Of a DNA stretch of 43,865 bases, positions 917-31,012 are shown piece after piece. How positions within the stretch are numbered: the stretch's first letter is position 1; the number at the start of each line of letters is the position of its first letter. Where the stretch lies: assembly GCA_032298335.1 (NCBI GenBank), contig GCA_032298335.1_4702.1; one strand, given 5' to 3'. Position numbers and translations under genes: made by a program. The notes under the pieces were generated by a model. It saw only the letters and a program-made list of their open reading frames with translations. It had not been told where the DNA came from and made no database searches. The stretch comes from a phage.

Positions 917-1303
917 ATTAACTGTTGACAGCCACGGCATACAAGGTTACATTAAGCATCAAGACGGCGACGTCTTTAAACATCCCGCTCTTTAACAATA
1001 CGGTTTGTGTCTTGATAGGCTAACTAACTAAGGTAATTATCATGAAAGGTTTAATTTGTGTAGAACGTATGGTCAATGGTAAACTTGAAATATTACCACT
1101 GGAAAACCAATCTAGCTTCAAAGAGTGGTATGGCTGTTTCTCACTGATTTAAGGTAAAGGCTGGCACTAGTCAGCCTATCAAGGCGCAAACCAAGCTCTT
1201 TAACAATTTGGATGGTAGCTTCTTAGTCTGGATAGGTTAAACCTAGGGGATTCTCTTGAGTCTCCTATAATGTAACCTAACTAACTAAATGAGGATTAAT
1301 AAC

Positions 1304-1657
1304 ATGGCTATGTCTAATATGACTTACTCTCAGGTTTACAACACCGCTCATGCTGCATTAGTTGAACGTATCTGGAATGATGCTATTGATTGTATTGATA
1401 ACGCACATGATGCAATCCATGATGCGGCGGATAGTGCTGTACCAATCTATTATGCTGACATCTTCTCCGTGATGGCGAGTGAAGGAATTGATCATTTCTT
1501 CGAAGACTCCGGCCTGATGCCAGACACTAAGGATGTAACCGTAGTATTGCAAGCCCGTATCTATGAGCAACTCACAATTGATCTATGGGAACGTGTTCAG
1601 TATATGATTGTTGAATACGTCAACTCCGCCGAATATTTAGAAGAAGAAGAGGAATAA
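1304..1657 (+). CDS. ocr: Ocr-like anti-restriction DNA-mimic protein (T7 gp0.3 homolog)
   Basis: 117-aa acidic protein. Starts MAMSNMTY and contains [42 protein letters not shown] and [15 protein letters not shown] with an acidic C-terminus, matching T7 Ocr as I recall it. GAGGA ribosome-binding site before the ATG at 1304. Confidence 0.85.
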
Positions 1658-5755: not shown

Positions 5756-5763
5756 TATTAATA

Positions 5764-5795
5764 GGCCATTCCTTCGGGAGTGGCCTTTTCTTTTT
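5764..5795 (+). terminator. Intrinsic terminator after the RNA polymerase gene
   Basis: 9-bp stem GGCCATTCC / GGAGTGGCC (one G-U pair) with a TTCG tetraloop, followed by TTTTCTTTTT. Confidence 0.75.
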
Positions 5796-5829: not shown

Positions 5830-5845
5830 GTCTCACATGTGAGAC
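5830..5845. repeat. 16-bp perfect palindrome GTCTCACATGTGAGAC (copy 1)
   Basis: Exact self-complementary 16-mer immediately upstream of a promoter variant. Confidence 0.9.
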
Positions 5846-5847
5846 TT

Positions 5848-5868
5848 ATTTACCGGACACTATAGGAT
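5848..5868 (+). promoter_or_regulatory. Phage RNA polymerase promoter variant (ATTTACCGGACACTATAGGAT)
   Basis: Matches the window consensus ATTTACTGGACACTATAGAAG except at -11 and +3/+4. Confidence 0.6.
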
Positions 5869-6011: not shown

Positions 6012-6027
6012 GTCTCACATGTGAGAC
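6012..6027. repeat. 16-bp perfect palindrome GTCTCACATGTGAGAC (copy 2)
   Basis: Exact repeat of the palindrome at 5830, again directly upstream of a promoter variant. Confidence 0.9.
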
Positions 6028-6032
6028 TTCGT

Positions 6033-6053
6033 ATTTACCGGACAGTATAGATA
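6033..6053 (+). promoter_or_regulatory. Phage RNA polymerase promoter variant (ATTTACCGGACAGTATAGATA)
   Basis: Promoter-like sequence with C to G at -5 and a changed +3; upstream of the gp1.1-like and primase genes. Confidence 0.5.
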
Positions 6054-6079
6054 AGACTAACTTACTTTGGGATTTAACC

Positions 6080-6211: not shown

Positions 6212-8200
6212 ATGGCTATTATTCAGAATGTACCGTGTCCTGCCTGTCAAAAGAATGGACATGATATTACTGGCAACCATCTTATGATATTTGAGGATGG
6301 CGCTGGTTACTGTAACCGTGGTCACTTCCATGATAATGGGAAGCCTTATTACCATAAGCCAGAGGGTGGTATCGAGATAACCGAATTGCCTATTACTGGC
6401 AATATCAAATATACACCTTCTCAATTCAAAGAAATGGAGAAGGAAGGGAAGATAAGCGACCCTAAGCTACGCGCCATCGCACTTGGTGGTATGCGTATGA
6501 AAGACCGTTGGGAGGTTATGAATGAGCAAGAAAGGGCAGACCAAGAAGCAGAGTGGAAACTTGATGTTGAATGGTTCCTCACGCTTAAGCGTAAGAACCT
6601 TGTATCCCGTCACATTCGAGGTGACATCGCAGCAATGTACGATGTGCGCGTTGGACACGATGAAGAGGGAAGAGTCAACCGTCACTATTATCCACGATAT
6701 GAAAAGGGTGTGCTTGTTGGAGCAAAATGCCGGACGTTGCCGAAGGATTTTAAGTTCGGACACCTAGGTAAACTCTTTGGTATGCAAGATCTTTTCGGTA
6801 TGAATACTTTGTCTCACGTGTTAGACAAGGGGAGGCGAAAGGATTGCTTGCTTATTGTAGGCGGTGAACTTGATGCACTAGCAGCGCAGCAGATGCTCCT
6901 TGATTCTGCCAAGGGTACTAAGTGGGAAGGACAACCATATCATGTGTGGTCTGTCAACAAGGGCGAGTCTTGCCTTGAAGAGATAGTGCAGAACCGTGAG
7001 CATATCGCCCAATTCAAGAAGATTATATGGGGTTTTGATGGAGATGAGGTAGGGCAGAAGCAGAATCAGCAAGCGGCTCGCCTGTTTCCTGGCAAATCCT
7101 ATATCCTTGAATACCCCTCTGGTTGCAAAGATGCTAACAAGGCATTGATGGCTGGCAAGGCCAAAGAGTTTGTTGATGCATGGTTTAATGCCAAGTCATC
7201 TGATGAAGTCTTTGGTAGCCAGATTAAATCTATCGCATCTCAAAGGGATAAGCTCAAGGCTGCACGTCCAGAGCAAGGACTATCATGGCCTTGGCCTAAG
7301 CTGAACAAGGTAACGCTAGGTATTCGTAAGAACCAACTTATCATTGTAGGCGCAGGCTCTGGTGTAGGTAAGACTGAGTTCCTTCGTGAAGTAGTTAAGC
7401 ACCTCATTGAAGAACACGGTGAATCTGTAGGCATCATTTCTACAGAAGACCCGATGGTCAAGGTGTCCCGTGCTTTTATCGGCAAGTGGATTGATAAGCG
7501 TATTGAGTTACCGCCAACCAACGACCCTAAAGAAGACGGATACCGTGAGGTGTTCGACTACACCGAGGAAGAAGCTAACGCCGCCATTGATTATGTAGCT
7601 GATACAGGTAAGCTGTTTGTAGCTGACCTAGAGGGTGACTATTCGATGGAAAAGGTAGAGCAAACTTGCCTAGAGTTTGAGGCTATGGGCATTTCTAATA
7701 TCATCATTGATAACTTAACGGGGATTAAATTAGATGAGCGTGCTTTTGGTGGGAAGGTTGGTGCACTTGATGAATGCGTCAAGCGGATTGGTACTATCAA
7801 AGACCGACACCCGGTTACTATATTCCTTGTATCACACCTTACACGTCCTCCGGCAAACCGTACCCAACACGAAGAAGGTGGCGAAGTTATCCTTTCTGAC
7901 TTCCGAGGCTCAGGCGCTATCGGATTCTGGGCATCTTACGCCTTGGGGATTGAGCGTAATACAAGAGCTGAAACGCTTGACGAAAGGACTACCACGTACA
8001 TCTCTTGTGTCAAAGACCGCGACCAAGGAATATTTTCCGGTACTCGTATAATGCTTAAAGGTGATATTGCTACTGGTCGATTACGTGAACCAGAGCAAAG
8101 ATCTCGACCGTTTGATACTGGTGCTCCAAAAGAACAAACTGTACCAGAAGAAGTAGTGGATAAAGGAGGATTTATTGCTGACGAAGTTGAAGAGTTTTGA
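6212..8200 (+). CDS. Bifunctional DNA primase/helicase (T7 gp4-like)
   Basis: N-terminal zinc-ribbon CPACQ...CNRGHFH; Walker A GAGSGVGKTEF; helicase motifs IIIDNLTG and VSHLTRPPANRTQHEEGGEVILSDFRGSGAIG paralleling T7 gp4; acidic C-terminus ending EEF. Confidence 0.95.
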   Translation: MAIIQNVPCPACQKNGHDITGNHLMIFEDGAGYCNRGHFHDNGKPYYHKPEGGIEITELPITGNIKYTPSQFKEMEKEGKISDPKLRAIALGGMRMKDRWEVMNEQERADQEAEWKLDVEWFLTLKRKNLVSRHIRGDIAAMYDVRVGHDEEGRVNRHYYPRYEKGVLVGAKCRTLPKDFKFGHLGKLFGMQDLFGMNTLSHVLDKGRRKDCLLIVGGELDALAAQQMLLDSAKGTKWEGQPYHVWSVNKGESCLEEIVQNREHIAQFKKIIWGFDGDEVGQKQNQQAARLFPGKSYILEYPSGCKDANKALMAGKAKEFVDAWFNAKSSDEVFGSQIKSIASQRDKLKAARPEQGLSWPWPKLNKVTLGIRKNQLIIVGAGSGVGKTEFLREVVKHLIEEHGESVGIISTEDPMVKVSRAFIGKWIDKRIELPPTNDPKEDGYREVFDYTEEEANAAIDYVADTGKLFVADLEGDYSMEKVEQTCLEFEAMGISNIIIDNLTGIKLDERAFGGKVGALDECVKRIGTIKDRHPVTIFLVSHLTRPPANRTQHEEGGEVILSDFRGSGAIGFWASYALGIERNTRAETLDERTTTYISCVKDRDQGIFSGTRIMLKGDIATGRLREPEQRSRPFDTGAPKEQTVPEEVVDKGGFIADEVEEF

Positions 8201-9158: not shown

Positions 9159-9170
9159 TAAGTCAAGGGT

Positions 9171-9188
9171 TGTCTCACACGTGAGACA
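9171..9188. repeat. Palindrome variant TGTCTCACACGTGAGACA (copy 3)
   Basis: 8-bp arms identical to the 16-mer palindrome with an altered central dinucleotide; followed by a T-rich stretch. Confidence 0.8.
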
Positions 9189-9218
9189 GCCTTTCATCAT
9201 ATTGATTGGAGGTGCATT

Positions 9219-9462: not shown

Positions 9463-9516
9463 CACCTAATTCTTTATTAGGACTTGGTTATAGGGCTAAA
9501 TACTTTGGAGCAATCT

Positions 9517-12063
9517 ATGAAATCAATTGATTGGAAGAAGGAAGCGGAAGGGCGCATCCTAGTTATGGACGCCGAGGCGAAAGGTCTACTTGATGCTATA
9601 CGCTATGGTCATCGTGAAGACGTGCATATCATCTGCTGTATGGACCTGTTGACTACAGAGGAGTTTCTCTTCTTCGACCCGTATGAGATGCGTGACCCTG
9701 AAGCAAGAGAACGCCTGAAGGAATGGGAAGGTCATCAAGATGGTGACTTGGTTGATGGTGTTAACTTCCTGAAGCACTGTGAGGCTATTGTGTCGCAGAA
9801 CTTCCTAGGGTATGACGGTCTTCTCTTTGAGAAAGCATTCCCTGATATTTGGAAAGGCTTTAACTATACCGAGAAGCGCGGTAAGGGCAGACTCCGTGCT
9901 GACCTGTGTCCGGTGCGAGTCATGGATACGCTGGTGATGAGTCGCCTGTTAAACCCCGATAGACGCCTTCCTCCGCAAGCATATGCCAAAGGTATGGGTA
10001 ACGTCGCCCCTCACTCAATTGAGGCGCACGGCATCCGTATAGGTCGCTATAAACCGGAGAACGAGGACTGGTCTAAACTAACTGACCACATGGTTCACCG
10101 TGTACGTGAGGACGTGGCGATTGGTCGTGACTTGTTCCTCTGGCTCTTTAACGGGGAATGGATGGAGCACAAACGCCGTGGCGTGAATAAACGCACGGGC
10201 CTAGGCATTGAGACAGCCTTCCACATGGAGTCCATTGTGGCGCTGGAGATGAGCCGTCAGGCCGAGCGCGGGTTCCGTCTGGACATCGACAAGGCTTTGG
10301 CCCGATGCGAAGAATTGGACGCTAAGATTGATGAGACAGTCGCAGCGTTCCGCCCTCACATGCCTATGCGTATCAAGTCTAAACCTTTTAAACCGGAAGA
10401 AAAGAATGAAGTATGCCAACGCGCAAATGAGTATGGAGCTAGCAACAATATACCTACTGTCCTTGACCCCTCACACTTTCTTCATGCCGAGAGACGAGGA
10501 GATCGCAAGACAGTATGGAGTGTCACTACTAAGTCTGGTGATTGGTCGGCTAGTGTCAAGAAAGACTTTCCTCACCTTAGAGGAAACCGTAATGACACGC
10601 CAAGCATCAAGTGGATTGGCGCTTACTCGCCTGTTACTTTCGAAGAGATTCCCTTGGGTAACAGGGATGCAGTTAAGCAAGTGCTCTATGAGTATGGATG
10701 GAAAGGTGTTGAATTTAACGATACCGAGCAAGCTCATCTCGATGAGCACGGAGTGTTACCAAAACCTTGGAGTGGTAAGATAAATGAAAAGTCCCTCACT
10801 TTATGGCAAGAAAGAGCCGCACGTGAAGGTAAAACAGCCCCTGATTGGTGCTTGGGTATCGCTGCATGGTACATACTCGTATCCCGTCGTGGTCAGATAC
10901 TCAACCGTGGTGACGTTGAAGCCTTCAACGAGAAGGGAACGTGGCCCTCGCAGGCTGGTGTACGAAAGTGTCGCGGCCTTGTACCTGTAGCATTCAACAA
11001 GGAGCTAGGAATCAATGCGCAGCAATACTACGAGAGGTACGGATGTTGGCCTACGTCTGACAAAGATGACGGAGAGTGGCGTGTTCCAGCTGTTGCTATT
11101 AGTATTGGCACTTCTACGTTCCGTATGCGTCATCGTAACGTGGTTAATATTCCTGCCCGTGGCTTGTATCCTTTACGTGATTTATTCATAGCAGGGAAAG
11201 GCAAGCTAATCCTTGGTTGTGACGGTGCAGGTCTTGAACTGCGTGTCCTGTCTCACTTCATGAATGACCCTGAGTACCAAGAGATTGTACTGCACGGTGA
11301 TATTCATACGCATAACCAGATGAAGGCTGGTCTTCCTAAGCGTGATATGGCGAAGACGTTTATATACGCCTTCCTCTATGGTTCTGGTATAGCCAACCTT
11401 GCAGCAGTCTGCGGTGTTACTGAGGAAGAAATGAAGGAAGTTGTGGCAAGATTCGAGATTGAACTACCGTCTCTTGCACGTCTTCGTGAGAATGTTATCG
11501 CACAAGGTAACAAGTTTGGCTACCTGCAAGCACTTGATGGGCATTGGGGTCGCATCCGCATGTCTGGTGGTGAACTTAAAGAGCACACGATGCTTAACGT
11601 ATTACTCCAGATGACTGGCTCTTTGTGTATGAAATATGCATTAGTCAAGGCATTTGCAGTAATGCGCAAGGAAGGTGTAGCTTTGGATGCTATGGGAAAT
11701 CCTTGTGGTGTGGCTAACGTGCATGATGAAATCCAGATGGAAGTTCCTGAAGAGGAGGTCTTGTATCTTAACTACGACCTACCTTTCACCTTAGATGGGT
11801 TCGAAACAGAGAAGGCTGCTGTGAAAGCAGTTTTCGATGCAGAGGAGAAACGTGTTCATGTGGATTCTGAAGGACGTATGTGGTCTGCTGCAAACCTAGT
11901 TAGCGTTGATGCTGATGCTGGTGTATTGCATTGCCAGCGCCGTTATCACCGTGCAGGTCATATCATTGCCGACGCCATGACTTGGGCAGGGCAGTATCTG
12001 AAGATGCGTTGCCCGATGGCAGGAGAATATAAGATTGGCGCAAGCTGGAAGGAAACACACTGA
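9517..12063 (+). CDS. DNA polymerase, family A (T7 gp5-like)
   Basis: Motifs DGAGLELRVLSHFM, GDIHTHNQ and AKTFIYAFLYGSG match T7 DNA polymerase motifs A/B; ATG at 9517 with a ribosome-binding site (the ORF track begins at an upstream TTG at 9484). Confidence 0.95.
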   Translation: MKSIDWKKEAEGRILVMDAEAKGLLDAIRYGHREDVHIICCMDLLTTEEFLFFDPYEMRDPEARERLKEWEGHQDGDLVDGVNFLKHCEAIVSQNFLGYDGLLFEKAFPDIWKGFNYTEKRGKGRLRADLCPVRVMDTLVMSRLLNPDRRLPPQAYAKGMGNVAPHSIEAHGIRIGRYKPENEDWSKLTDHMVHRVREDVAIGRDLFLWLFNGEWMEHKRRGVNKRTGLGIETAFHMESIVALEMSRQAERGFRLDIDKALARCEELDAKIDETVAAFRPHMPMRIKSKPFKPEEKNEVCQRANEYGASNNIPTVLDPSHFLHAERRGDRKTVWSVTTKSGDWSASVKKDFPHLRGNRNDTPSIKWIGAYSPVTFEEIPLGNRDAVKQVLYEYGWKGVEFNDTEQAHLDEHGVLPKPWSGKINEKSLTLWQERAAREGKTAPDWCLGIAAWYILVSRRGQILNRGDVEAFNEKGTWPSQAGVRKCRGLVPVAFNKELGINAQQYYERYGCWPTSDKDDGEWRVPAVAISIGTSTFRMRHRNVVNIPARGLYPLRDLFIAGKGKLILGCDGAGLELRVLSHFMNDPEYQEIVLHGDIHTHNQMKAGLPKRDMAKTFIYAFLYGSGIANLAAVCGVTEEEMKEVVARFEIELPSLARLRENVIAQGNKFGYLQALDGHWGRIRMSGGELKEHTMLNVLLQMTGSLCMKYALVKAFAVMRKEGVALDAMGNPCGVANVHDEIQMEVPEEEVLYLNYDLPFTLDGFETEKAAVKAVFDAEEKRVHVDSEGRMWSAANLVSVDADAGVLHCQRRYHRAGHIIADAMTWAGQYLKMRCPMAGEYKIGASWKETH

Positions 12064-12345: not shown

Positions 12346-12366
12346 ATTTACTGGACACTATAGAAG
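12346..12366 (+). promoter_or_regulatory. Phage RNA polymerase promoter (ATTTACTGGACACTATAGAAG)
   Basis: Exact match to the consensus defined by the other copies in this window. Confidence 0.85.
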
Positions 12367-12432: not shown

Positions 12433-12810
12433 ATGTCTATGGTAACTACTCTGGTATTTGTAGCTCAATACTTTCGTGGTCTGGCTAATAAGTTCAAGTC
12501 CAAGGCTATCAAAGCTATTGAGTCTCGCATCGAGGCAGTACAGGCAGAGCAAGTTAAAGTTGAAGAACATCGTAGTTCTAAAATGATTGACCGCCATAAC
12601 CGCTACTATGCATCTCGTGATGACCTTAATGCACGCCAAGTCAAAGAGGTTGAAGAGATGCTGGCACGTCACCAGCAAGAGCGCGACAGTCTGAAAGCTG
12701 AATTTGAAGAGAACAAGGCATCCATCGCCCTTGTACACCAATCTGCATCTGACAGTCTGAAGAAAGAGATTGTTATGCTTGAAATCGAACTGGACAACCT
12801 GACCAAATAA
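12433..12810 (+). CDS. Hypothetical coiled-coil protein (125 aa)
   Basis: AGGAG ribosome-binding site; charged heptad-like sequence. Confidence 0.6.
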   Translation: MSMVTTLVFVAQYFRGLANKFKSKAIKAIESRIEAVQAEQVKVEEHRSSKMIDRHNRYYASRDDLNARQVKEVEEMLARHQQERDSLKAEFEENKASIALVHQSASDSLKKEIVMLEIELDNLTK

Positions 12811-12816
12811 GGAATT

Positions 12817-13116
12817 ATGATGGAAGAAGTAATTCAAGCTAAACATGTAGGTATCATTTTTCGTGATCTAGAGCAGCGTAAAGTTGCAGGTCACACTCGT
12901 CTGGCTAAAGAGGAAGACACCGCAATCACTACGGTAGAACAAGCAGATGCCTATCGTGGTCCGGAGTTCACTCAAGGTGAAACTTGTCACCAATTGAGCC
13001 TATCACTTTGTGACACTATGGCTATTGTAAATGTGCAAGAAGTCGAAGAGGGTGAGTGTGTCAGTTACATCTACCCTTTAGATACTATTGCACGCATTAA
13101 GGTAATCCATAAGTAA
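12817..13116 (+). CDS. Hypothetical protein (99 aa)
   Basis: ORF with a ribosome-binding site; no motif recognised. Confidence 0.55.
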   Translation: MMEEVIQAKHVGIIFRDLEQRKVAGHTRLAKEEDTAITTVEQADAYRGPEFTQGETCHQLSLSLCDTMAIVNVQEVEEGECVSYIYPLDTIARIKVIHK

Positions 13117-13135
13117 TTACTGGACACTATAGAAC
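13115..13135 (+). promoter_or_regulatory. Phage RNA polymerase promoter (AATTACTGGACACTATAGAAC)
   Basis: Consensus core CACTATAGAA; overlaps the upstream stop codon. Confidence 0.8.
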
Positions 13136-13276
13136 AATAGGTCGGCTTAGTTCGGCCTATGATTGTAAAGTGTTGAACCATTGTGCATCTTGCACAACCC
13201 GATACCGTATCGGGCTTTCTAGTGAGTACATGCTTGTGCTCAGTACAAAGCTAACTGACAATAGGAGACTAAATAA

Positions 13277-14083
13277 ATGGCACGTGGTGATTTTGATTTT
13301 GGTGCTTCCGTATCTAAAGCTGAAGGTAAAGTCTTTAAGAACCCAGAAGTAGGTGATCATGAAGCAGTAATCTCTGGCATCATTCATGTTGGTTCCTTCC
13401 AAGATATCTTTAAGAAAGGTAATACCACTGAAGTTAAGAAGCCAGCAAACTTTGTTCTTGTTAAGATTATCCTGATGGGTGACGACGATAAGAATGAAGA
13501 TGATTCTCGCATGGAACAATGGATGGCTGTGCCTCTGAAGTCTGGTGATAAGGCAACACTGACTAAGTTCCTGAATGCAGTTGACCCTAAAGAGTTGCTG
13601 GGTGGCTTCGATGATTTTATCGGTGAATGTCTGACTGCAACTATGGTTGGCTCTGGCGACAAGAATGATGATGGTACTTTCAAGTATGTTAACTGGAAAG
13701 GCTTTGGCGGTATGCCTGATAAGTTGAAGAAGCTTGTACTGGCTCAGGTAGAAGAGGAAGGTCTGTCTATGACAGGTCATATCACCTTCGACAAGCTGAC
13801 CAAAGAAATCCTTGATGACATTCCTGCTAACTGGGTGCGTCAATACTTCCTTAATGAAACACCTCGTGGTAAGAACCTGTCTGTTGCTGGTTCTCACGTA
13901 GAAGCAATCATTAAAGCTGCTCGTGAAGAAGACCCAGAGTGGAAGAAAGCCAAGAAGAAAGATGACGAGGATGCTACTCCAGCTAATCGTAAATCTCTGG
14001 ATACTGGTGAGTCTGTTCCACAGGAAGTACCTGAAGCAGAAGATACTCCTGCACCGGAGATGGATGAGGACGCGGAATATTAA
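13277..14083 (+). CDS. Acidic-tailed protein, candidate ssDNA-binding protein (268 aa)
   Basis: High-expression codon usage; acidic C-terminal tail ending DEDAEY; comparable in size and position class to T7 gp2.5. The functional call is an inference. Confidence 0.6.
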   Translation: MARGDFDFGASVSKAEGKVFKNPEVGDHEAVISGIIHVGSFQDIFKKGNTTEVKKPANFVLVKIILMGDDDKNEDDSRMEQWMAVPLKSGDKATLTKFLNAVDPKELLGGFDDFIGECLTATMVGSGDKNDDGTFKYVNWKGFGGMPDKLKKLVLAQVEEEGLSMTGHITFDKLTKEILDDIPANWVRQYFLNETPRGKNLSVAGSHVEAIIKAAREEDPEWKKAKKKDDEDATPANRKSLDTGESVPQEVPEAEDTPAPEMDEDAEY

Positions 14084-14092
14084 GGAGAAAGG

Positions 14093-14311
14093 ATGAAAGT
14101 ACAAATCGTAACCCTGCACTGCAAGAAAGGTGTCACAACGCTCGGAGGTAGCACTTTCCACTCTTTCTCCGAAGGGGAGATTTATGCTGACCTGCACTAC
14201 ATCTGGCGCGACGGACAGCACGTGGTGAACTACAGCGACCCAGCTACGGGGAAACGCCACGGCGTATCGCTTCCTGCGCATGACATTGCTCAGGTGAACA
14301 CAGTTTTATAA
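14093..14311 (+). CDS. Hypothetical protein (72 aa)
   Basis: AAGGAG ribosome-binding site; no motif recognised. Confidence 0.55.
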   Translation: MKVQIVTLHCKKGVTTLGGSTFHSFSEGEIYADLHYIWRDGQHVVNYSDPATGKRHGVSLPAHDIAQVNTVL

Positions 14312-14312
14312 A

Positions 14313-14328
14313 GTCTCACATGTGAGAC
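14313..14328. repeat. 16-bp perfect palindrome GTCTCACATGTGAGAC (copy 4)
   Basis: Exact copy, 16 nt upstream of the promoter at 14344. Confidence 0.9.
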
Positions 14329-14343
14329 AAATCGGTGTCCGGT

Positions 14344-14364
14344 ATTTACTGGACACTATAGAAG
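14344..14364 (+). promoter_or_regulatory. Phage RNA polymerase promoter (ATTTACTGGACACTATAGAAG)
   Basis: Exact consensus. Confidence 0.85.
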
Positions 14365-14415
14365 AGAAGAATTTTAATCGGCGATAATGCCACAACTAAC
14401 AAAGGAGAATTTAAT

Positions 14416-14790
14416 ATGTTCAAGATTGAAACTATCGTAAACCGTGTTGTTAAAGGTGCTGCTCTGGTATCCGTTGAGTCTTTCATTATCGTCGATGAAG
14501 CTGATCAACTGGTAGCTGGTACTAAGGCTTATGATACTCGTGAAGAAGCTCAGGCTAAGATTGACAGCATGGGTAACTTCGCTGCGGGTCTGGAGTTCGC
14601 TCGTGCTTGCTTCCCTGAGCAGGCTGACAAAGCTCAGATTGGTAAGGCTAATATCGTAGCTGAATATCTGGATTGGATTGCTGCTGGTAAGCCGGTGAAA
14701 GAAGTTAAAGCTGCGGAAGAAGTTGAAGCTCCGGCAGTAGAAGAAGTAGCTGCACCGGAAGTTCCGGTAAGCGAAGAAGAAGAGTTTTAA
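14416..14790 (+). CDS. Small highly acidic protein with C-terminal EEEEF tail (124 aa)
   Basis: Strong ribosome-binding site; codon usage like the capsid gene; net charge about -13; own promoter upstream and terminator-like hairpin downstream. Confidence 0.7.
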   Translation: MFKIETIVNRVVKGAALVSVESFIIVDEADQLVAGTKAYDTREEAQAKIDSMGNFAAGLEFARACFPEQADKAQIGKANIVAEYLDWIAAGKPVKEVKAAEEVEAPAVEEVAAPEVPVSEEEEF

Positions 14791-14801
14791 TTGATGCCCT
14801 G

Positions 14802-14828
14802 TCTGCCTTAGTGTAGGCAGGGTCTTTG
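14802..14828 (+). terminator. Candidate terminator hairpin
   Basis: Stem CTGCCT / AGGCAG (6 bp plus one G-U) with loop TAGTGT, then TCTTT. Confidence 0.45.
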
Positions 14829-14853
14829 CGTAATAGTTATTGTAGAATGAATT

Positions 14854-15144
14854 ATGCCGACTATTGAAGAACGTTTCCTGATTCACGTGAGCTTCTCATC
14901 CATACATCTTGGTTATCTTATCACTATTCTCTTAGGTGAAGAGATTTATCTGCATAACCACTTAATACCAGAGTATGTATGTCACCGAGATAAGATACAC
15001 CCTGCTAATTGGGCGAAAGAGTGGCTGCGTGAACATGTGCTGAAGGAGTGGCCTACATGCGACCAAACTTCGACTTCGGAGCTACAGTATCGGAAGACAA
15101 TAACCTGTTGCTGTGGCCAACTGAAGGTAATCGAATCGCTTTAA
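14854..15144 (+). CDS. Questionable ORF (96 aa) overlapping the exonuclease start
   Basis: Fills a 230-bp gap but has no ribosome-binding site and overlaps the exonuclease gene by about 90 bp in another frame. Confidence 0.25.
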   Translation: MPTIEERFLIHVSFSSIHLGYLITILLGEEIYLHNHLIPEYVCHRDKIHPANWAKEWLREHVLKEWPTCDQTSTSELQYRKTITCCCGQLKVIESL

Positions 15145-16085
15145 TAGATGCTGATATGTTACCTTACATCGTCGGGTATACAATCAGTGACATGACTTAT
15201 GTACGAGCTACAACTCGTGTTAAGTCAGGACAAGTCCCATCAATCAAAGATACCCCTGAGTGTAAGCAAGCGTGTGACCGTGTGAACTCCTTGCTTAACT
15301 CTTGGGTGTATGCAGCAGAGTGTGATGCAGCTAAGTTATTCATGACGAAATCAGAAGCTAACTTCCGTGTTCGCCTAGCCTTCACCAAGCCTTATAAGGG
15401 TCAACGTAAGACCGAGAAGCCTCCGTTCTTCTATGAATTGCGAGAGCATCTCTTAGAGGTTCATGGTGCAATCTTGGCAGATGGAGAAGAGGCTGATGAC
15501 CTCATGAGCATTGCACAATGGGACAGCCACCGCCGCTTCCAGCAAGATACAGGTAACGAGTTCCCTATCGGTAGTCCAGAGCATAAAGCATTCTCTGATA
15601 CTTGCATCGTTTCCTTAGATAAGGATTTGATGATTGTTCCCGGTTGGCATCTTCAGCCGGGTCAAGAGAAGAAATGGGTAGAGCCTATGGGTTGGCTTGA
15701 GTTACGCCGTAAGGCTAATGGTCAGGTTAAAGACCTTAAGGGTGCTGGCCTCATGTTTCATTATGCACAGATGATTATCGGTGATGATATTGATAACTAT
15801 GCTGGCATACCTGGACGTGGTGCTAAATACGCCTATGATCTTCTCAAAGATTGTAAGACAGAGAAAGAGTTGTACATGGCAGTGCTTGGTGCTTACAAGG
15901 CTAAGTTCGGACATGGACAAGTTAAGATTAAGAATTACCGAGGGGGTTATCGTATCGGCAAGGCTTTTGACCTGATGCTCGAATGTGGTCGCCTAGCTCA
16001 CATGGCAGGATTCAAAGGTGATATATGGCGAGCCGATAAGAACCCAATCTTGTGGGGAGATGATGCGGAATGGTTAGCAAATTAA
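15057..16085 (+). CDS. 5'-3' exonuclease (T7 gp6-like)
   Basis: IALIDADMLPYIV and GDDIDNYAGIPG parallel T7 gp6 ILVMDGDWLVF and GDITDGYSGIAG; GAAGGAG ribosome-binding site before the ATG at 15057. Confidence 0.9.
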   Translation: MRPNFDFGATVSEDNNLLLWPTEGNRIALIDADMLPYIVGYTISDMTYVRATTRVKSGQVPSIKDTPECKQACDRVNSLLNSWVYAAECDAAKLFMTKSEANFRVRLAFTKPYKGQRKTEKPPFFYELREHLLEVHGAILADGEEADDLMSIAQWDSHRRFQQDTGNEFPIGSPEHKAFSDTCIVSLDKDLMIVPGWHLQPGQEKKWVEPMGWLELRRKANGQVKDLKGAGLMFHYAQMIIGDDIDNYAGIPGRGAKYAYDLLKDCKTEKELYMAVLGAYKAKFGHGQVKIKNYRGGYRIGKAFDLMLECGRLAHMAGFKGDIWRADKNPILWGDDAEWLAN

Positions 16086-16480
16086 AATCATCTGAGGTAG
16101 CAGCTTATAAGAGGGAATTGCTAGAGAAGCAAGGATGGAAGTGCCCCCTATGTGGCGGCAGTCTCAAGGCTGTTACTCCTATAAACCGTGTACTTGACCA
16201 TGACCATGAGACAGGATTCTGCCGTGCTGTTGTATGCCGAGGCTGCAATGGTGCAGAAGGAAAGATTAAGGGTGTTATCTCTGGTTACGGTAAGGCGGGT
16301 AACAACCGTTACTTCCAGCTTCAATGGTTAGAGCGACTATATGAATACTGGAAGTTACATAGTACACCTCAGACAGATAAGTTATATCACAAACATCAAA
16401 CGGAGGCAGAGAAGCGCGAGGCTAAGAACCGTAAGGCACGCCTTGCTTATGCAAGAAAGAAGGAGGTTAAAGTTGGGTAA
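16070..16480 (+). CDS. Endonuclease VII-like Holliday-junction resolvase
   Basis: CPLCGG ... LDHDHETG ... CRGCNGAEG matches the T4 endonuclease VII zinc/catalytic signature. Confidence 0.85.
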   Translation: MVSKLKSSEVAAYKRELLEKQGWKCPLCGGSLKAVTPINRVLDHDHETGFCRAVVCRGCNGAEGKIKGVISGYGKAGNNRYFQLQWLERLYEYWKLHSTPQTDKLYHKHQTEAEKREAKNRKARLAYARKKEVKVG

Positions 16481-17480
16481 GCTTCGCAGCTTGTACAAAG
16501 ACTCCGAGGTACTTGATGCAATCGAGCAAGCTACCGACGAGAAAGGTAATGTTAATTACAATGAGATGGCACGTGTATTATCGTGTCACCCTGTGGGTAA
16601 GAAGATTACCCGCCAGTTGGCTCGATACTGGCATGGTCAATTCAAGAAGACCAAGAAGAATGGTGATTATTACCAGACCCTTCTGCAAGAAGATAAGCGT
16701 ATCAAAGAAGAGCGTAAGCTCAGGACTCCTGACCGCTACGAGGATTTGGCTATTGTACCATTGCCTGACTCACCTCATCGAAGTGTACTGGTAATCCCTG
16801 ATACTCATGCACCTTATGAGCATCCAGATACCTTAGAGTTCCTTGCAGCAGTCGCGGCACGTTACCGTCCAGACACAGTGGTACACCTAGGAGATGAGGC
16901 AGACAAACATGCCTTGTCATTCCACGATTCGGACCCAAATCTGGATAGTGCTGGCATGGAGTTAGAGAAGGCTCGTATCTTCATGCACAAATTGCACAAG
17001 ATGTTCCCTGTGATGCGCCTGTGTCACTCCAACCACGGCTCTATGCACTTCCGTAAGGCAAGCGCCAAGGGCATCCCTGTGCAATACCTGCGCACCTACC
17101 GTGAAGTCTTTTTCCCAAATGGAGGTGGCGACCAGTGGGGTTGGCAGCATACACATGTTCTTGAGTTGCCGAATGGTGAACAAGTGGCATTCAAGCATCA
17201 ACCTGCTGGCTCTGTCCTAGCAGATGCAGCGCATGAGCGTATGAACCTTGTGTGTGGTCACTTGCACGGTAAGATGTCTGTGGAGTACGCACGTAATACA
17301 CATGAACAGTATTGGGCTGTGCAAGGTGGCTGCTTAATTGATGAGTCATCCCGTGCATTTGCCTATGGGCGTGAGTCTAAATACAAGCCAGCATTAGGTT
17401 GTGTGGTTATTCTGGAGGGTGTACCTCATATTGTCCCGATGCAAACCAATAGCGACAACCGTTGGATTGGCAAGATTTAG
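16449..17480 (+). CDS. Calcineurin-like metallophosphoesterase
   Basis: Ordered motifs DTH (in VIPDTHAPY), GDEAD, SNHG and CGHLHG follow the DxH / GDxxD / GNH / GHxH pattern. Start is uncertain: ATG at 16449, or TTG at 16473 with an AGGAGG ribosome-binding site. Confidence 0.75.
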   Translation: MQERRRLKLGKLRSLYKDSEVLDAIEQATDEKGNVNYNEMARVLSCHPVGKKITRQLARYWHGQFKKTKKNGDYYQTLLQEDKRIKEERKLRTPDRYEDLAIVPLPDSPHRSVLVIPDTHAPYEHPDTLEFLAAVAARYRPDTVVHLGDEADKHALSFHDSDPNLDSAGMELEKARIFMHKLHKMFPVMRLCHSNHGSMHFRKASAKGIPVQYLRTYREVFFPNGGGDQWGWQHTHVLELPNGEQVAFKHQPAGSVLADAAHERMNLVCGHLHGKMSVEYARNTHEQYWAVQGGCLIDESSRAFAYGRESKYKPALGCVVILEGVPHIVPMQTNSDNRWIGKI

Positions 17481-17495
17481 TTGACACTATAGAAC
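17475..17495 (+). promoter_or_regulatory. Phage RNA polymerase promoter variant (ATTTAGTTGACACTATAGAAC)
   Basis: Closer to the SP6 form (ATTTAGGTGACACTATAGAAG); overlaps the phosphoesterase stop codon. Confidence 0.7.
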
Positions 17496-17579
17496 AAGGG
17501 CTAGGTAAGACTTTATCGGCTGGCGTATCCAAATGATATTGCACTAGCCCTTGATTGTATAGTGAATGGAGGATTCAAT

Positions 17580-24084: not shown

Positions 24085-24092
24085 CACCTATG

Positions 24093-24125
24093 CCCTATCT
24101 ACCTTGCGTAGGTAGGGTTCTTTTT
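24093..24125 (+). terminator. Intrinsic terminator after the capsid gene
   Basis: 10-bp stem CCCTATCTAC / GTAGGTAGGG (one G-U pair), loop CTTGC, then TTCTTTTT. Confidence 0.8.
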
Positions 24126-30948: not shown

Positions 30949-30965
30949 TACCTAACTCAAGGCTT

Positions 30966-30981
30966 GTCTCACATGTGAGAC
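30966..30981. repeat. 16-bp perfect palindrome GTCTCACATGTGAGAC (copy 5)
   Basis: Exact copy between the two large internal virion protein genes, followed by GGTCTTTA. Confidence 0.9.
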
Positions 30982-31012
30982 AGGTCTTTATGATAGGCAC
31001 TATGGAGGAACT

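Follow-up and report, generated by a model that had tools for sequence, protein, structure and literature searches.

The DNA from nt 14344 onwards of this phage genome raises the question of what a small, strongly acidic protein contributes to infection, when its gene is bracketed by a phage promoter on one side and a stable hairpin on the other. From the sequence alone, it had been proposed that the 124 aa protein is very highly expressed from its own promoter–terminator unit, and that it acts as a DNA-mimic inhibitor in the manner of Ocr or T7 gp5.9. The analysis described here supports the first proposal in silico but points away from the second, and a protein of the phage replication module, docking through its C-terminal tail, is tentatively preferred.

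Genome and locus

The window (the whole stretch of 43,865 nt that was analysed) is, by sequence comparison, a Vectrevirus genome of the K1-5/K1E group of SP6-like podoviruses. A megablast search with nt 13200–16500 matched 104 phage records, the best of them at 98–99% identity. The ORF at 14416–14790 (+ strand, 124 aa) encodes a homologue of SP6 gp20 and of gp24 of Escherichia phage LL11, and belongs to PHROG 4429, a family of unknown function; a published table also gives gp20 as the SP6 counterpart (PMC4837284). The SP6 name is used below. The gene order in LL11 is DNA polymerase, small ORFs, gp21–gp23, gp24, a 'DNA repair protein', exonuclease and endonuclease VII, and gp24, the counterpart of gp20, carries the annotation 'hypothetical'. 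In the window, the genes for primase-helicase, DNA polymerase and exonuclease lie at 6212–8200, 9484–12063 and 15048–16085. In every phage examined, gp20 belongs by position to the replication module, and the portal gene follows 6 kb further downstream. An Rfam scan of nt 13000–16000 detected no known RNA family. The features of the locus are listed below.

13277–14083, + strand: gp18 gene (268 aa, net charge −18, C-terminus ...EMDEDAEY, CAI 0.50)
14313–14328, + strand: palindrome/hairpin GTCTCACATGTGAGAC, between the gp19 stop codon, which it directly follows, and the gp20 promoter (read and folded)
14334–14357, + strand: 10 bp hairpin GGTGTCCGGT-attt-ACTGGACACT (ΔG about −15 kcal/mol)
14344–14366, + strand: predicted phage RNA-polymerase promoter of the SP6/K1-5 type (exact consensus)
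14402–14407, + strand: Shine-Dalgarno sequence AAGGAG, 8 nt before the ATG
14416–14790, + strand: gene of the gp20 family (from homology, dN/dS and CAI)
14416–14694, + strand: predicted folded domain of gp20, residues 1–93 (AF2 model and conservation)
14695–14763, + strand: predicted disordered, acidic linker of gp20, rich in Pro, Ala, Glu and Val (pLDDT about 50; in-frame indels)
14764–14787, + strand: C-terminal peptide of gp20, PVSEEEEF, invariant among close homologues
14796–14830, + strand: terminator-like hairpin (14796–14823) with the short U-run CUUUGCG (folding, and paralogy with the capsid hairpin)

Promoter and upstream hairpins

The promoter at 14344–14366 is identical over all 23 positions (0 mismatches) to ATTTACTGGACACTATAGAAGAG, the consensus of the phage promoters in the window, and ends 50 nt before the ATG, so the consensus promoter that had been placed 50 nt upstream of the gene is confirmed. 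The genome carries eight sites within three mismatches of this consensus, against none expected by chance. The only perfect copies are those at 14344 and 39228, while that of the capsid gene (22805) departs from the consensus at one position. A sigma-70 scan gave no site at the gp20 promoter or upstream of gp20, and 14344–14366 is read from its sequence as a promoter of the phage RNA polymerase, not of the sigma-70 type. By the convention for SP6 and T7 promoters, transcription would start (+1) at G14361.

Two inverted repeats lie close to this promoter. The 3′ arm of the hairpin at 14334–14357 is the specificity region of the promoter itself, and in four other phages the 5′ arm has changed along with the promoter sequence. 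The palindrome at 14313–14328 has further copies upstream of the promoters at 5848 and 6033, and a counterpart with compensatory changes in related loci (L005, L009, L011 and L017).

Coding signals and selection

The Shine-Dalgarno sequence at 14402–14407 is at a place equivalent to that where the annotators of LL11 put a ribosome-binding site. When the codon usage of 35 genes was compared by E. coli CAI, gp20 ranked top (0.662), above the major capsid gene (0.503) and gp18; the gene had been described as having capsid-like codon usage, and its bias is stronger than that. Values of dN/dS for gp20 against four relatives were 0.06–0.16, indicating that the + frame is a real gene and that the antisense ORF at 14374–14886 is spurious.

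The downstream hairpin

The hairpin at 14796–14823 (GCCCTGTCTGCC-ttagtg-TAGGCAGGGT) has a GC-rich stem of 10–11 bp, with a ΔG of −17.8 to −20 kcal/mol and a z-score of −3.7, and ranks first in stability among the simple hairpins of the + strand of the genome. It is a paralogue of the hairpin that follows the capsid gene (24092–24118, GCCCTATCTACC..TAGGTAGGGT), from which GCCCTGTCTGCC..TAGGCAGGGT differs by two compensatory changes. The T-tract behind it is weak (CTTTGCG, three consecutive T), and a generic terminator scan, which requires 5 T in 8, misses the element. Of the hairpin and T-tract that had been noted downstream of the gene, the hairpin is thus well supported and the T-tract is poorly developed in this genome. 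The runs are longer in relatives, where TTTTG or TTATTTTTGTT is found (in RNA, UUUUG or UUAUUUUUGUU).

In its GC-rich stem-loop followed by a U-run, the element resembles the class I terminator of the T7 T-phi type that follows the capsid gene. It differs in the shortness of its U-run (CUUUG) and in its location in the middle-gene region, where it must pass transcription on to downstream genes. Downstream of 14823, the next phage promoter found is a weaker one at about 17475, so the genes for exonuclease, endonuclease VII and phosphoesterase must be transcribed by read-through. We infer that the hairpin is probably a leaky attenuator, setting gp20 expression far above that of its downstream neighbours. 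The annotators of Proteus phage PM 93 mark a terminator at the corresponding position, and the hairpin behind gp20 in Vibrio phage AS51 is built like the capsid terminator published for phiA318, a near-identical phage.

The promoter, ribosome-binding site, top-ranking CAI and capsid-type hairpin support, in silico, the proposal that gp20 forms a self-contained, very highly expressed transcription unit of its own. Searches of the literature turned up no paper on this protein in SP6 or on its homologues, nor did they yield transcriptome or proteome data for a family member.

Conservation and distribution

A tblastn search of 50,697 phage records detected gp20 in 213, all of them podoviruses of 42–47 kb, with hosts in the genera Escherichia, Klebsiella, Salmonella, Proteus, Pectobacterium, Erwinia, Vibrio, Pseudomonas, Marinomonas, Ralstonia and Aeromonas. 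In 40 of 40 records sampled across the 213, the gene is annotated as hypothetical or carries no annotation. A HMMER scan of 1.84 billion representatives returned only 29 gp20 clusters, nearly all of 87–149 aa, and several of the distant members lie on contigs too short for gene context. One truncated homologue, without the terminal Phe, is found between a gp18-like gene and an exonuclease gene on a 45 kb podovirus contig. A long match in the deep search (P0144), considered as a possible fusion of the gp20 domain, was rejected as an unrelated repeat protein.

The arrangement around the gene is conserved. In all 14 loci examined, representing nine host genera, the order DNA polymerase, gp18-like, gp20-like, exonuclease and endonuclease VII is maintained, and a GC hairpin (ΔG −16 to −22) followed by a T-rich run, often TTATTTTTGTT, occurs 4–66 nt past gp20. 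A motif of the phage promoter type is present 45–65 nt upstream of gp20 in most of the 14, and the annotators of Vibrio phage AS51 mark a promoter upstream of the homologue. Promoter and hairpin sequences differ between genera but the layout is retained. Between distant phages, gp20 shows 45–51% identity, compared with 50–54% for DNA polymerase and 45–48% for exonuclease; by this measure, gp20 diverges at the pace of the core replication genes.

Charge distribution and predicted fold

The protein has 25 acidic and 12 basic residues, a net charge of −13 and a pI of 4.3. Residues 1–93 have a net charge of −4 and residues 94–124 one of −9, so that the tail accounts for 9–10 of the 13 net negative charges. 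The protein is therefore as strongly acidic as had been stated, but its charge is not evenly spread, most of it lying in the disordered C-terminal tail. Across the family, the folded domain has a net charge of 0 to −5 and a pI of 4.6–6.7.

The AF2 model (m86e7a8848486), made with a diverse alignment (A2), has a pLDDT of 81.5 overall, about 90 for residues 1–95 and about 50 for the tail; a shallow alignment had yielded only a poor model (pLDDT 58). It predicts a beta-hairpin (3–13, 16–26) followed by helices at 42–51, 53–65 and 71–89. Residues conserved in the diverse alignment, which reaches down to 25% identity, are K37, A45, G58, K77-A78-N79, A82, W87 and G91. Among 30 close homologues (alignment A1), there is hardly any variation over the first ~95 residues; the following ~20 differ through in-frame indels, and the terminal eight residues, PVSEEEEF, are identical in all 30.

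Comparison of the predicted fold with solved structures gave no relative above noise, and no match to Ocr, gp5.9 or an OB fold. Neither the single protein nor the family profile gave a match among PDB sequences; scans of Pfam, NCBIfam and PADLOC gave nothing meaningful, and PHROGs only family 4429. By hhalign, the family profile matched T7 gp5.5, gp5.9 and gp2.5 with probabilities of 0.1%, 0.2% and 0.8%, and gp5.3 with less than 1%, and showed no relationship to the window's helicase. On the model, the folded domain is a new fold of the alpha+beta type, of ~93 aa, without known relative. It is mildly acidic and unlike any known replisome protein, which counts against a place for gp20 in the replication module.

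Acidic, aromatic-ended tails

Among the 35 main proteins of the window, an acidic run ending in a terminal aromatic residue is found in only three: the primase-helicase (...ADEVEEF), gp18 (...EMDEDAEY) and gp20 (...SEEEEF). Helicase C-termini in the window and in diverged relatives are DEVEEF, DDTQEF, DEKETY, TEEVEF and DEIEEF, and those of gp18 are DEDAEY, DEEF, EQEY, SEF and similar. The acidic stretch with terminal Phe is present in 18 of 26 diverse gp20 family members, and a few more have a Phe 1–2 residues from the end. About a fifth of the family (P0133, P0134, P0137, P0142 and P0149) has no terminal or near-terminal Phe, an observation that counts against a tail-dependent role in replication.

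Similar tails are known from the replication proteins of T7, in which the helicase gp4 ends in ...NDTDF and gp2.5 in ...DEDGDF. Through its tail, gp2.5 binds to a basic patch on the DNA polymerase (gp5) and to the helicase gp4; gp2.5 without its tail fails to stimulate the gp6 exonuclease, and the terminal Phe has been the topic of dedicated studies (PMC4124056, PMC12339929). An acidic, Phe-ended peptide of the gp4 type is carried by gp20 and by the helicases of the SP6 group, and its retention by these helicases suggests that the tail logic of T7 applies in this phage group also; in gp20, however, it sits on a small, non-enzymatic domain rather than on a helicase. [quoted passage not shown] The two differ in sequence (0.8% by hhalign), in size, gp20 being half as large, and in fold, gp2.5 having an OB fold and gp20 a predicted beta-hairpin and three helices. 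With free tails present at capsid level, the helicase and gp18 could face competition for the polymerase; this would look inhibitory, and does not sit easily with a replication function.

The gp18 gene was found in 216 of the 50,697 phage records and gp20 in 213, in the same genera except for a difference in Pseudomonas (15 versus 12 records); the two genes co-occur almost perfectly. When their family profiles were compared by hhalign, only the C-terminal tips aligned, and not significantly. Searches with gp18 against T7 gp2.5, PDB and Pfam gave no match and no link to any SSB, and in the sampled records it is never annotated as one. The role of gp18 as an SSB is therefore unproven, and to speak of an 'SSB neighbourhood' around gp20 is itself conjecture, which weakens a replication-module assignment made on that ground. 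No ssDNA-binding protein was identified for the SP6/K1-5 group, gp18 and gp20 both being unlike T7 gp2.5.

Alternative functions of gp20

Like gp5.9 and Ocr, gp20 is small and acidic (net −13), and like T7 gene 5.9 it lies immediately upstream of the exonuclease gene; these features agree with the suggestion that it is a DNA mimic inhibiting host nucleases or restriction systems. DNA mimics show a folded acidic surface, whereas the charge of gp20 is in its disordered tail and the folded domain has only −4. Structure prediction, which had been recommended as a way to look for a DNA-like charge array, gave an AF2 domain with this low charge and no mimic-like fold. There was no structural match to any mimic, the hhalign comparison with gp5.9 gave 0.2%, PADLOC and Pfam gave no matches, and membership of the Ocr family was not indicated by sequence or profile, which led to PHROG 4429 only. 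An Ocr-like gene is already present in the early region of the window (1289–1657, net −19; phrog_2568 at E = 3e-46), and SP6 gp5 is likewise Ocr-like (PMC4837284). Early expression by the host RNA polymerase, as for Ocr, is not indicated for gp20, which is located at 14.4 kb behind a phage promoter with no sigma-70-like site upstream; transcription by the phage polymerase, ~14 kb into the genome, would come too late for anti-restriction. A target such as RecBCD, which is scarce, would not need an inhibitor made at capsid level, and anti-defence genes are usually patchy in occurrence, whereas gp20 is part of the fixed core of the replication module. The analogy with Ocr and gp5.9 is thus not upheld, and a mimic of this type is very unlikely. 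What is left of the idea is a weaker form, resting on the resemblance of the acidic, Phe-ended tail of gp20 to that of T7 gp2.5, a competitor of ssDNA for the binding cleft; Marintcheva et al. (2008) are said to have found such competition by a tail of the gp2.5 type. Alternatively, gp20 could be a stoichiometric inhibitor or decoy that titrates an abundant host protein, as T7 gp5.5 does with H-NS, the novel domain binding the host target, or the tail luring away proteins that recognise SSB-type tails, and capsid-level expression being needed for saturation. The extremely strong expression signals of so small a protein, the new fold without enzyme-like features, and a formal similarity of the tail to SSB C-terminal tips would suit such a role, as would a gene position between DNA polymerase and exonuclease, shared with T7 genes 5.5 and 5.9; T7 gp5.5 is also a small and reportedly highly expressed protein. 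Homology to gp5.5 (DUF2675) was not detectable (0.1%, and no Pfam match for gp20), and gp5.5 has no acidic Phe tail of the gp20 kind. The gp20 tail is like those of the phage's own helicase and gp18 (xEEF) rather than the host SSB tip, DDDIPF. Genes for host takeover tend to be patchily distributed, but gp20 is universal in its own phage group, is fixed in position in phages of Vibrio, Pseudomonas, Ralstonia and E. coli, shows the divergence rate of core genes and co-occurs almost perfectly with gp18. A host decoy is accordingly regarded as unlikely, though it deserves more weight than a DNA mimic.

T7-type replication needs a phage SSB, in stoichiometric and very high amounts, yet no gp2.5 homologue is detectable in gp18 or gp20. 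The expression signals of gp20, its gp2.5-type tail and the conservation of K37, K77, N79, W87 and aromatic positions 39 and 84 are compatible with gp20 being this protein, or one subunit of a two-protein SSB with gp18: the conserved lysines and aromatics would coat ssDNA and the tail would recruit the polymerase, in place of gp2.5, the OB-fold protein of T7. The fold predicted for gp20 is not OB, no known ssDNA binder was matched above noise, the folded domain has a net charge of 0 to −5, and gp18 is, by its size, the better candidate, all of which make an SSB function of gp20 improbable. A related and similarly doubtful possibility is that gp18 and gp20 together form a non-OB system for ssDNA binding and replisome organisation, which would replace gp2.5 across the SP6/K1-5 supergroup. 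The small, hyper-abundant part of this system would be gp20, either coating DNA or serving as a free 'tail reservoir', the tails of which would regulate how the polymerase is passed between helicase, SSB and exonuclease. A component of the virion or of its assembly (decoration or scaffold-like) might be suspected from the promoter and terminator of major-capsid type and a CAI even higher than that of the capsid gene. The location in the replication module, well upstream of the portal gene in each phage, the long disordered acidic tail, and co-occurrence with gp18 and not with a structural gene argue in the other direction, and a virion role is extremely improbable.

A proposed replication-module protein with a putative docking tail

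The most plausible assignment, which is offered tentatively, is that gp20 is an abundant protein of the replication module that docks by its tail on the phage DNA polymerase or on another receptor of such tails. A tail peptide common to the primase-helicase, gp18, T7 gp4 and gp2.5 is what would place it within the replication–recombination module. A replication-module factor is more likely than an Ocr-like DNA mimic. From the anatomy, expression signals, conservation, co-occurrence and shared tail motif observed, we infer both the binding partner and the role in replication.

Under this assignment, gp20 would be produced from its own short unit with a phage promoter of consensus sequence and a strong ribosome-binding site in front of a gene of optimal codons, and a leaky terminator of the capsid type behind it; the same terminator would throttle the downstream genes for exonuclease, endonuclease VII and phosphoesterase. 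The protein consists of three parts: a folded domain of ~93 aa, a flexible, acidic Pro/Ala/Glu linker of ~25 aa, and the acidic, Phe-ended peptide. The tail would tether gp20 to the DNA polymerase or other receptor, and the novel domain would supply some activity, possibly together with gp18. As modelled, the family appears to be an uncharacterised orphan in which a new fold bears a known kind of docking peptide.

SP6, K1-5 and K1E are classic model phages and relevant to therapy, and in this group the gene with the strongest expression signals is annotated as 'hypothetical', or not at all, in the 40 records sampled. A docking tail of the T7 type on a new fold would offer a testable entry into the organisation of the replisome in SP6/K1-5 phages. 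The gp20 unit is also a compact, natural promoter–gene–attenuator design for a single-subunit phage RNA polymerase. If docking holds, the principle of an acidic tail with a terminal Phe would extend beyond helicases and SSBs of known fold.

Hairpins and promoters near gp20 and elsewhere in the window

A tandem pair of hairpins (14313-14357) lies immediately upstream of the gp20 promoter and overlaps it. In the second hairpin, the specificity region of the promoter forms one arm and is paired with a 5′ arm (GGTGTCCGGT/ACTGGACACT). This 5′ arm co-varies with the promoter sequence upstream of gp20 homologues in four other phages (L005, L009, L011 and L017), where the paired arms are GGTGTCCTCT/AGGGGACACT, TGGTGGTCT/AGACCACTA, AGGGCGGCTT/AAGTTGCCCT and CCGCCC/GGGCGG. 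Among the loci compared with the window, the promoter-overlapping hairpin was absent at L002, L013, L014 and L018. Its role could lie in transcripts that read through this region, as a structure for RNA processing or 3′ stabilisation, or it could be a DNA element linked to the promoter.

Three additional, more divergent phage-promoter-like sites are present in the window, which were not caught by the consensus search with its threshold of three mismatches:

6033-6055, phage-promoter-like site, ATTTACCGGACAGTATAGATAAG
17475-17497, phage-promoter-like site, ATTTAGTTGACACTATAGAACAA
35451-35473, phage-promoter-like site, CAATACTGGACACTATAGAAGAA

A palindrome, GTCTCACATGTGAGAC, is repeated within the window, and three copies are found a few nt upstream of phage promoters, while two longer hairpin variants (pattern AAGGxTTGTCTCACAyGTGAGACAGxxCTT) are sited away from these:

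5830-5845, palindrome, upstream of promoter 5848
6012-6027, palindrome, upstream of promoter 6033
14313-14328, palindrome, upstream of promoter 14344
9165-9194, extended variant
30959-30988, extended variant

One possibility is that the palindrome represents an RNase III-type processing site.

Terminator-like hairpins

The hairpin downstream of gp20 (14796-14823) is a paralogue of the one after the major capsid gene (24092-24118), from which it differs by two compensatory base-pair changes. The capsid-gene hairpin is followed by TCTTTTTGTT. The early terminator (5763-5786), located after the RNA polymerase gene and followed by TTTCTTTTT, is unrelated to these two hairpins.

Acidic proteins and the genes upstream of gp20

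The early region carries an Ocr-like anti-restriction gene (1289-1657; phrog_2568, E = 3e-46), the 122 aa product of which has a net charge of -19 and the C-terminus EYLEEEEE.

Both PHROGs and GenBank records label the homologue of gp17 (12433-12810) a 'polysaccharide chain length determinant protein'. The label looks like a spurious transfer, because the protein is coiled-coil-like, 125 aa long, has a high codon adaptation index (CAI, 0.50) and is served by its own promoter at 12346.

Two small ORFs flank gp18, one on each side. The first (12817-13116) specifies a 99 aa protein of PHROG 8057, and the second, gp19 (14093-14311), a 72 aa protein of PHROG 5791. Since gp19 also shows a second, weak match to PHROG 8057 (E = 0.0034), the two may be distant paralogues.

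The gp18 protein itself (13277-14083; 268 aa, net charge -18, CAI 0.50) belongs to PHROG 862, annotated as 'unknown'. No similarity was detectable to T7 gp2.5, PDB chains or Pfam families, and the sole weak match, to the NCBIfam family NGO0469 ('phage replication initiation protein'), was sub-threshold (E = 0.0016). Its C-terminus is an acidic tail with Tyr as the last residue, where most relatives have Phe. By its features gp18 looks SSB-like, and its co-occurrence with gp20 is almost perfect.
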